Shown here: positions 7,314 to 8,259 of the stretch, in pieces
Layout of the letters: each line of letters opens with the position of its first letter
Position numbering within the stretch: position 1 is the stretch's first letter
DNA from: a virus
Lineage: Duplodnaviria; Heunggongvirae; Uroviricota; Caudoviricetes
Direction: 5' to 3' (one strand)
DNA: 24,913 nucleotides
Virus record (IMG/VR): IMGVR_UViG_2537562172_000005
Program-made: the position numbers and the translations under genes
The notes under the pieces: model-generated
Told to the model about the DNA's origin: nothing
Seen by the model: the letters and a program-made list of their open reading frames with translations, nothing else
Databases searched by the model: none

Positions 7314-8259
7314 ACGCCCACTGGTTATAAACACACAGCTTGCGATGAAGATTGGCTTAAACGAAGCCATTGTGTTGCAGCAACTGCATTACTGGTTGAG
7401 AGATACCAATTCCGGCATGGAATGTGATGGTGTTCGCTGGATTTACAACACAACGGAACAATGGCTGGCGCAGTTCCCGTTCTGGTCAGAGTCAACGTTA
7501 AAGCGCGCGTTTGCAAGTCTGAAAACGCTGGGGCTTTTGCGTTGCGAAAAGCTCAATAAATCAAAGCGCGACATGACCAATTTCTACACGATCAACTACG
7601 GGAGCGATCTTTTAGATGGTGGCAAATTGAGCGAATCCATCAGTTCAAAATGCGTCGCTCCATCAGGTCAAAATGACATGATGGAAGAGGTCAAAATGAA
7701 ACGCTCCATTGGTTCAAAACGACCCAATGTCATCGGGTCAAAATGGCCCGATGATCCTACAGAGAATACAACAGAGATTACTACAGAGAATAAAAACACT
7801 TTTCGTCCGGAAGCTTTGCAACCGGACCAGCAGACGGCTGAACAGGATTTTTTAATCCGGCACCCTGACGCAGTTGTGTTTAGTGCGAAAAAACGGCAGT
7901 GGGGTAGCCAGGAGGATTTGGCGTGTGCGCAGTGGATCTGGGGGCGGATCGTGGGTCTCTACGAACAGGCCGCCAGTGATGATGGCGAGATCATGCGACC
8001 AAAAGAGCCTAACTGGACTGCCTGGGCCAATGACGTGCGCACAATGCGGATGCTGGATGGCAGAAGCCACAGACAAATTTGCGAAATGTTTGGTCGGGTA
8101 CAGCGAGATCCATTCTGGGTCAAAAACATCATGAGTCCGTCAAAGCTTCGCGAAAAATGGGATGAGCTGGTTATTCGCCTGGGGCGTTCGCCAATAAAGC
8201 GTTGTGTGAATCATATTTCTGAACCGGATACCGAAATTCCGCCTGGTTTCAGGGGATAA
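7294..8259 (+). CDS. Phage replication initiator (O-like replisome organiser)
   Basis: Winged-helix-like N-domain; five iterons embedded mid-gene; conserved C-terminal domain (WIWGRIVGLY...FWVKNIM); start could instead be 7240. Confidence 0.65.
   Translation: MSLLFAERPLVINTQLAMKIGLNEAIVLQQLHYWLRDTNSGMECDGVRWIYNTTEQWLAQFPFWSESTLKRAFASLKTLGLLRCEKLNKSKRDMTNFYTINYGSDLLDGGKLSESISSKCVAPSGQNDMMEEVKMKRSIGSKRPNVIGSKWPDDPTENTTEITTENKNTFRPEALQPDQQTAEQDFLIRHPDAVVFSAKKRQWGSQEDLACAQWIWGRIVGLYEQAASDDGEIMRPKEPNWTAWANDVRTMRMLDGRSHRQICEMFGRVQRDPFWVKNIMSPSKLREKWDELVIRLGRSPIKRCVNHISEPDTEIPPGFRG
7637..7800. repeat. Origin iterons and adjacent AT-rich tract
   Basis: Five direct repeats with core (G/T)TCAAAA(T/C)G at 7644, 7667, 7690, 7713, 7737 (spacing 23,23,23,24 bp); then A-rich ACAGAGA(A/T)TA repeats. 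Confidence 0.6.

Follow-up and report, generated by a model that had tools for sequence, protein, structure and literature searches.

Whether a run of phased repeats in the middle of a phage replication gene marks the place where replication starts is the question raised by the IMG/VR virus record IMGVR_UViG_2537562172_000005, a stretch of 24,913 nucleotides (nt) that is called the window below, always at its full length. The repeats lie in a gene for an O-like replication initiator. The segment with this gene (7240-8259) was 100% identical to a prophage beside ompW in the porcine E. coli strain UMNF18; that prophage carries stx2e, and the corresponding position of the window holds an open reading frame (ORF) with a ribosome-inactivating-protein domain. 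On these matches, the element is a lambdoid E. coli prophage of the Shiga toxin (Stx) 2e type. A preliminary description of the stretch had placed an origin of replication inside the initiator gene, and our computational analysis supported this through constraint at the DNA level, a layout kept across the family, covariation of protein residue 67 with the repeats, and a C-terminal domain (C-domain) homologous to that of lambda O. We conclude from these sequence comparisons that 7614-7803, which lies in the part of the initiator gene encoding the linker, is very probably the vegetative replication origin of the Stx2e prophage.

The core GKTCAAAAYG was found on the plus strand at 7643, 7666, 7689, 7712, and 7736, with spacings of 23, 23, 23, and 24 bp. 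The 24.9-kb window contained one further match against a chance expectation of 0.39, and six or more matches were reached in 0 of 100 shuffles. The five units at 23-24 bp phasing given in the preliminary description (cores within 7643-7745) were therefore real, and as a count of strong copies the number five holds. However, a degenerate sixth unit, TGGCAAATTGAGC, had been overlooked; its core, at 7620, precedes that of the first copy by exactly 23 bp. This unit, iteron 0, is a full-strength copy in mEp460_4F5 and in Klebsiella and Citrobacter relatives. When the units were written as 25-mers (an 11-nt arm, AAA, and an 11-nt arm), units 2, 4, and 5 appeared as imperfect palindromes (arm matches in Table 1), and units 1 and 3 retained chiefly the left half and the core. 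Palindrome counts did not discriminate between the array and a coding control, as selection of the best of many gives 5/7 palindromes anywhere; from these counts, only the comparison of mismatch types was used.

Downstream of the iterons, ACAGAGAWTA occurred at 7759, 7771, and 7783 and at no other site in the window (0.15 expected), which bears out the three ACAGAGA(A/T)TA repeats described earlier. The distance from the last iteron core to the start of the first ACAGAGA is 22-23 bp both in the window and in many relatives, which keeps the repeat in register with the array. This segment had also been called an AT-rich tract. It is strongly A-skewed, but its AT content is a moderate 67% over 7755-7800, compared with ~45-55% in the flanks. 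By nearest-neighbour free energy (dG), 7763-7803 was the least stable 40 bp of the gene (-45.9 vs a mean of -56.7 with a standard deviation of 3.4, that is, 3.2 standard deviations below the mean), and it fell within the top 1.5% of the whole window for low duplex stability.

Repeats inside a gene could owe their regularity to the protein, as a repetitive linker peptide. The three 12-bp units do encode TENT/TEIT/TENK in frame. The five iteron cores, however, stand in codon phases 1, 0, 2, 1, and 1, so the 23-bp units are mutually out of frame and encode unrelated peptides, which excludes a protein-level tandem repeat for them. To compare constraint along the gene, 66 distinct close genes were aligned, and diversity was taken, for codon positions 1/2/3, as the fraction of sequences without the majority base. 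The N-terminal domain (N-domain,.035/.015/.14) and the C-domain (.09/.09/.18) had the usual coding pattern. The iteron array (.036/.041/.035) and the ACAGAGA tract (0/.044/.005) lacked codon periodicity and were far better conserved than the remaining linker (.10/.10/.11 just downstream of the origin), and third-position variation in the array was 4 times lower than in the N-domain. Within the units, the best-conserved positions were the central CAAA, TG, and two flanking bases. Some relatives also space the ACAGAGA units at 11 bp and so carry them in different frames. These patterns indicate that the repeats are constrained as DNA and not as codons, and they leave the protein-repeat explanation with a negligible probability.

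The palindromes might alternatively function at the mRNA level and form hairpins with an effect on translation, stability, or pausing. Folding of the 7610-7800 RNA gives hairpins at iterons 2, 4, and 5 (z = -3.7 vs shuffles), and the arm-to-arm covariation described below would preserve hairpins too. On the other hand, units 1 and 3 keep the core without the second arm, and the best-conserved bases, CAAA and TG, would be loop and closing bases rather than stems. The arm mismatches had no excess of the G.U-compatible type (60 G/T vs 97 A/C), and no Rfam match was found in the region. Strict phasing at 22-24 nt and covariation with a protein residue are likewise unexpected for an RNA function, which we therefore consider extremely improbable.

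The gene that holds the repeats matched phrog_391 over its full length, with residues 35-339 of the long ORF aligned to profile positions 11-298 of 298. The start codon adopted here, ATG at 7294, is that annotated in phage HannyBb and by the Prokaryotic Genome Annotation Pipeline (PGAP). The product is a 'hypothetical protein' according to PGAP and in the source names of the best 120 homologs, and the initiator protein had no match in Pfam, PF04492 (Phage_rep_O) included. Among 5426 complete E. coli genomes, 1780 had copies of the gene with at least 80% coverage. The plaque-forming phages HannyBb, PhiR42_1, and mEp460 carry a version that is 95% identical and has the same repeats.

These phages bear on whether the segment is an origin by descent only, that is, a non-functional relic in a decaying prophage. 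The surroundings give some grounds for decay: the replication module is closely followed by a SIR2 gene and an IS481 transposase gene, and PGAP marked a methyltransferase and an endolysin-type peptidase as frameshifted in the UMNF18 prophage, where the O-like gene has 100% identity. The initiator ORF is nevertheless intact, as is the methylase ORF in the window, and the six iterons and three ACAGAGA repeats match those of the plaque-forming phages almost base for base. We regard a relic as unlikely.

The AlphaFold model of the initiator was of medium quality, with a mean predicted local distance difference test score (pLDDT) of 57 and ~70 for the folded part of the N-domain (residues 10-100). 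A Foldseek search with this AlphaFold2 (AF2) model gave no significant match; the best E value was 0.04, and 5kbj, which we take to be a staphylococcal plasmid Rep, came second at 0.07. The top matches were all winged-helix DNA binders (AbfR2, the 5kbj Rep-DNA complex, and the MarR and Fur families), and the DnaD N-domain ranked 40th. By its modelled topology, the N-domain is thus putatively winged-helix-like.

Relatives of the N-domain were collected to examine whether the repeats accompany it. A tblastn search returned 150 phage records, with identities of 74% in Klebsiella, 57-59% in Erwinia and Pseudomonas, ~50% in Staphylococcus, and 46% in Bacillus phages, and with hits in Lactobacillus as well; relatives in the Klebsiella, Erwinia, Pseudomonas, Staphylococcus, and Bacillus phages ranged overall from 44% to 74%. 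The host range of the family comprised Enterobacterales, Pseudomonas, Staphylococcus, Bacillus, Lactobacillaceae, and Chloroflexi metagenome-assembled genomes (MAGs). Among six relatives inspected by hand, five had an array phased at 22-25 bp directly after the N-domain, and all six had (T)ACAGAGAnTAC repeats. We then analysed 80 diverse genome loci and 80 IMG/VR loci. At least two copies of [AC]CAGAGA were present between +250 and +700 nt relative to the start of the gene in 127 of these 160 loci. In the 150 nt upstream of the ACAGAGA repeats, the best self-similarity lag was 22-24 bp in 62 of 78 diverse loci and exactly 23 in 41. N-domain coding controls peaked mostly at multiples of 3, and in this comparison the mean identity at lag 23 was 0.42 versus 0.25. 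The ACAGAGA unit itself was nearly invariant, with the consensus (A/C)(C/T)(T/A)ACAGAGA(A/T/C)TAC and a spacing of 12 bp (n = 174), rarely 11 bp (n = 8) or 10 bp (n = 1). One of the relatives differed, Pseudomonas phage AF (locus L010, 1820-1900), where only a single clear iteron-like unit, GAGGGCAATTTGCAC, is followed by two ACAGAGAnTAC repeats and then by a primase-helicase gene; this may be a minimal version of the origin.

The distribution across the family also bears on a regulatory explanation, in which the repeats are operator, autoregulatory, or incompatibility (handcuffing) sites for the initiator or for the Cro-like, CII-like, or DUF977 protein and control expression rather than the start of replication. 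Plasmid iterons are known to mediate autoregulation and handcuffing in addition to initiation, and the array lies within a transcribed early operon. Across phyla, the array nevertheless accompanies the N-domain irrespective of the genes beside it, and Staphylococcus and Bacillus phages without cro, cII, or DUF977 neighbours have it too. Moreover, a low-stability repeat tract always follows the array, and the position corresponds by homology to that of the lambda ori, which has been defined experimentally. A purely regulatory role is therefore very unlikely in our estimate, and we return to replication initiation as the preferred function.

Between lineages, both arms of the iterons change jointly (GGTCA..TGACC, GGGCA..TGCCC, GGACA..TGTCC, GATCA..TGATC, and TTGCA..TGCAA); examples of variants with both arms altered are GGTCAAAATGACC, GGGCAAATTGCCC, GGACAATTTGTCC, GGATCAAATCGATCC, TGATCAAnnTGATCA, and TTGCAAnTTGCAA. 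Across 55 distinct N-domains, the variable base beside the half-site CA shared 1.53 bits of mutual information with the column of Ser67, while the next-best column, that of the adjacent residue, reached 0.91. Ser or Ala went with T in 27 loci, including those of Enterobacterales, Staphylococcus caprae, and Bacillus phage TP21-L. Asp went with G in 15 of 15 loci (Pseudomonas, Erwinia, Pantoea, Acinetobacter, Comamonas, and Hydrogenimonas), Lys with A in 6 of 6 (Pantoea, Mixta, and one MAG), and His with C once. Considering that Pantoea has both the Asp/G and the Lys/A types and that the Ser/T type is found in Firmicutes as well as Proteobacteria, the association does not reflect one inherited event.

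A natural domain swap points in the same direction. In E. coli 2015C-3107, a different N-domain precedes the same C-domain, and the gene carries its own repeats, TTGACCCGTC, with a 15-bp period and without ACAGAGA repeats. Homology to this gene begins near window position 7793, and the mosaic junction thus directly follows the third ACAGAGA repeat. The joint exchange of N-domain and repeats, like the covariation at residue 67, lends indirect support to the proposed binding of the iterons by the initiator. The 2015C-3107 repeats (locus L004, 2832-2928) are partly palindromic and probably represent a second origin type.

The ACAGAGA repeat likewise tracks the N-domain and not the type of C-domain, which is lambda-O-like here and DnaD-like in Staphylococcus phage IPLA88. 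Its sequence is conserved from AT-rich Staphylococcus phages to GC-rich Pseudomonas prophages. Because of this conservation across hosts of diverse base composition, together with the association with the N-domain, it may be the sequence of the repeat that is recognised, for example in single-stranded DNA. Plasmid Rep proteins are known to bind the repeats of their unwinding elements in single-stranded form.

From this arrangement, we infer a mechanism of dimer binding, ACAGAGA melting, and helicase recruitment. The O-like protein, probably dimeric, would bind the five to six iterons phased at 23 bp through its N-terminal winged-helix-like domain, with the start of helix 66-78 (Ser67) reading the variable base of each half-site. 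The nucleoprotein array would strain the adjacent unstable tract of three ACAGAGAWTAC repeats and thereby cause melting. The lambda-O-like C-domain and a DnaT-like C-terminal tail would then bring in the host helicase machinery. This role is proposed for them because the phage itself appears to lack a P- or DnaC-type loader: the annotations of the UMNF18 prophage and of the 11 kb surrounding the gene in HannyBb include no P, DnaC-like, or DnaB-like gene. Lambda O recruits P-DnaB through its C-domain. An 88% identical relative (locus L005) carries a DnaC-like ATPase gene directly downstream.

The tail matched E. coli DnaT (Table 1) and accounted by itself for the hits to the DnaT chains 2ru8 and 9zbt in the PDB and to NCBIfam NF002770. 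The protein did not score as a DnaT equivalog under that model (17 bits vs a cut-off of 201), as only profile positions 159-179 align. The RAST label 'Primosomal protein I' on phage copies likewise stems from the tail alone. The same tail, at more than 93% nucleotide identity, ends initiators with other N-domains in phages Tritos and 606R7 and in strain 2015C-3107, and a looser motif, D(Y/S)xxIPxGF(R/K)G, ends many enterobacterial members of the family. A 423-bp gene, annotated as DUF977 in 2015C-3107, follows 40 bp after DnaT-tailed initiators (loci L004, L175, and L176). These matches allow the suggestion, made with low confidence, that through the tail the origin complex could be linked to DnaB-DnaC or the host primosome. 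A 2026 structural study of the preprimosome (PMC13377028) describes the mechanism by which DnaT recruits DnaB-DnaC as unknown, and neither that paper nor a 2014 review (PMC4129139) states a binding partner for the last 20 residues of DnaT. A full-text search for DnaT-like tails in phages found nothing relevant. Firmicute members of the N-domain family (loci L012, L013, and L057-L094) end in acidic-aromatic tails that resemble the SSB tail (EEDFxxDD, DDLPF, EPDFDF, and DIVLPF), which suggests host-specific recruiting motifs at the position of the DnaT-like tail.

Several points weigh against an active origin of this design. Searches of the N-domain by sequence and profile against the PDB, Pfam, and NCBIfam returned nothing significant, and the winged-helix assignment comes from a medium-confidence model with non-significant Foldseek matches. 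The diversity and covariation statistics ignore phylogeny. The AT content of the tract is only 67%, and its repeats are mostly in frame (T-E-x-T), with copies in different frames in only 7 of 94 loci, so some contribution at the protein level is possible. With the IS481 insertion nearby, this prophage copy may be inactive. The last step of the mechanism, recruitment of the helicase, is conjecture. No experimental work on origins of this N-domain family was found in the full-text literature, where searches with the repeat sequences returned only primers and unrelated matches.

A wider reading, which we put forward tentatively and hold to be the less probable one, is that of an origin 'cassette' shared across phyla. 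It would consist of an unannotated winged-helix N-domain in which residue 67 alone determines the iteron base read (Ser for T, Asp for G, Lys for A), 23-bp palindromic iterons, and the near-invariant (T)ACAGAGAnTAC, with its period of about one helical turn, as a sequence-specific unwinding or helicase-entry element that is more than a stretch of weak DNA; enterobacterial members would add a motif copied from DnaT, D/S-x-x-I-P-x-G-F-R-G, that replaces a P/DnaC loader. If this were true, the phage would plug into the host restart primosome or DnaB-DnaC, and the DnaT tail would be a partner-binding element. No description of such a cassette was found in curated databases or the literature. As far as our searches reached, the N-domain family, the ACAGAGAnTAC repeat, the residue-67 rule, and the mimicry of the DnaT tail are new relative to Pfam, NCBIfam, the PDB, and the searchable literature.

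The analysis defines the probable replicon of an Stx2e prophage, and replication of Stx phages drives toxin gene dosage. The comparison across the family yields a candidate one-residue rule for iteron recognition, and the 12-bp repeat common to Staphylococcus phages and E. coli prophages is a candidate unwinding element. Loader-less phage initiators with a DnaT tail may further offer a handle on what the tail of DnaT itself binds.

Table 1. Positions of the initiator gene, its predicted domains, the repeats, and neighbouring features in the window
Feature	Position	Strand	Details
pR-like promoter candidate	6517..6545	+	TTGACT-17-TATTTT; consensus match 9/12; between the divergent dicA-like and dicC/cro-like genes
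dicA-like repressor	6087-6494	minus	
cro/dicC-like gene	6578-6808		
cII/YdaT-like gene	6792-7313		
O-like replication initiator gene, holding the probable origin	7294..8259	+	321 amino acids (aa); phrog_391 'replication initiation O-like', E 1.1e-91
N-terminal domain, putative winged-helix, iteron-binding	7294..7617	+	aa 1-108; AF2 pLDDT ~70; helix-turn-helix plus beta-hairpin topology
Ser67 codon, predicted specificity residue	7492..7494	+	FPFWSE-S-TLKR; start (first turn) of predicted helix 66-78
Segment encoding the predicted disordered inter-domain linker	7618..7815	+	aa 109-174; pLDDT <50; coincides with the iterons and the ACAGAGA tract
Iteron 0	7614..7638	+	degenerate; core TGGCAAATTG at 7620
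Iteron 1	7637..7661	+	core GTTCAAAATG at 7643; left half-site only
Iteron 2	7660..7684	+	core GGTCAAAATG at 7666; palindrome 10/11
Iteron 3	7683..7707	+	core GGTCAAAATG at 7689; weak symmetry 6/11
Iteron 4	7706..7730	+	core GTTCAAAACG at 7712; palindrome 8/11
Iteron 5	7730..7754	+	core GGTCAAAATG at 7736; palindrome 10/11
Putative DNA-unwinding element	7757..7803	+	three 12-bp repeats, ACAGAGAATACA at 7759, ACAGAGATTACT at 7771, ACAGAGAATAAA at 7783, plus an A-run
C-terminal domain, lambda O C-domain homolog	7840..8181	+	aa ~183-296; helical model, pLDDT 70-84
C-terminal tail KRCVNHISEPDTEIPPGFRG	8197..8256	+	aa 302-321; 15/20 identical to MG1655 DnaT residues 160-179, E 3e-8
DUF977 / 'Ren-like' gene	8300-8707	+	PF06163, E 6e-29; phrog_142; occupies the position of P in lambda

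The genes around the origin follow the order dicA-like, cro/dicC-like, cII/YdaT-like, repeat-bearing ORF, and DUF977. Transcription from the candidate pR-like promoter, upstream of the cro-like, cII-like, and O-like genes, would cross the origin; promoter-type sites were no commoner in the region than in shuffles, and the candidate is weak. DnaA boxes were absent in and near the origin; the nearest match was at 8311, and their number was at chance level.

Further downstream, the SIR2-family gene at 9076-10107 (Pfam SIR2_2, with weak PADLOC matches to Aga_SIR2 and PDC-S21) is flanked by the replication module and the IS481 transposase gene (10436-11509, minus strand) and may be a prophage-borne defence gene. 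An Rfam match of 109 bits to the sok antitoxin RNA was found at 10310-10477, and the corresponding site in UMNF18 has a hokD toxin gene in the PGAP annotation, which indicates a hok/sok-type module in the nin-like region. Two tRNA genes (16548-16620 and 16725-16798) stand just upstream of the ORF with the ribosome-inactivating-protein domain (16886-17851), whose counterpart in UMNF18 bears the annotation Stx2e A subunit. The place, downstream of the Q antiterminator, is the usual one in the late region. The DNA methylase ORF at 15449-16507 (N6_N4_Mtase) is intact in the window and is marked as frameshifted by PGAP in UMNF18, and downstream coordinates are offset by ~5-11 bp relative to UMNF18. 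The window therefore comes from a close relative of UMNF18 whose sequence is not identical. In the early left operon, an 800-residue 'exonuclease' (1422-3824, minus strand) has a C-terminal Rv2179c-like 3'-5' exoribonuclease domain and a remainder mostly without domain assignment.

Among known systems, E. coli DnaT (primosomal protein i) resembles the initiator in the last 20 residues, which are 75% identical and end in IPPGFRG; nothing else matches. Iteron plasmids (pSC101, R6K, RK2, P1, F, and the staphylococcal RepA_N group) combine a winged-helix initiator, phased direct repeats, and an unwinding element of short repeats. Plasmid iterons usually lie outside the rep gene, and DnaA boxes are usually present. 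Unlike those origins, the one proposed here has its iterons inside the gene, lacks DnaA boxes, and shares no sequence homology with them. The oriJ/YdaU system of the Rac prophage was considered as the same origin and rejected, YdaU being a DUF1376 protein with a different N-domain.

An iteron origin inside the initiator gene is textbook knowledge for lambda and has been reported in other phage groups. In Lactococcus phage TP901-1, whose origin has reportedly been mapped, the repeats also lie inside the initiator gene, rep (ORF13; GenBank label 'replication protein, experimental'), between an N-terminal DNA-binding part and a helicase-recruiting C-domain. Its repeats, however, have a 15-bp period and a different sequence, its C-domain is of the DnaD type, and its N-domain is unrelated; TP901-1 Rep was therefore rejected as a characterised relative and is an analogue only.

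The closest parallel is lambda. Other lambdoid phages, among them phi80, 82, and 21 and P22 with gene 18, are reported to share the lambda origin plan. The lambda ori in gene O has four annotated 18-bp dyad iterons spaced 20/24/23 bp, followed by an A-rich tract. The likeness to this ori-within-O arrangement that the preliminary description had asserted holds for the layout, the linker position, and the homology of the C-domain. Both origins have dyad iterons phased at 20-24 bp with an A-rich, low-stability tract on the promoter-distal side, and in both the repeats fall in the linker-coding middle of the initiator gene, immediately ahead of the aligned region and reaching into its beginning. 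The C-domain is 34% identical to that of lambda O over 148 residues (aa 147-294, E 7e-28 by BLASTP), the gene has the cro-cII-O position in the early right operon, and the central motif TCAAAA(C/T)G resembles the lambda iteron CTCAAAACG. The likeness fails in the N-domain, which is unrelated in sequence, as BLASTP aligns the C-terminal half only, and in the absence of a P-type loader: no P gene comes next, DUF977 standing in its place, and the DnaT-like tail is absent from lambda O. It also differs in the number of units, six here versus four in lambda; six iterons have been described for the Stx phages 933W and P27 (PMC7466680). Finally, where lambda has an irregular A-rich run, the prophage has a defined 12-bp ACAGAGAnTAC repeat.

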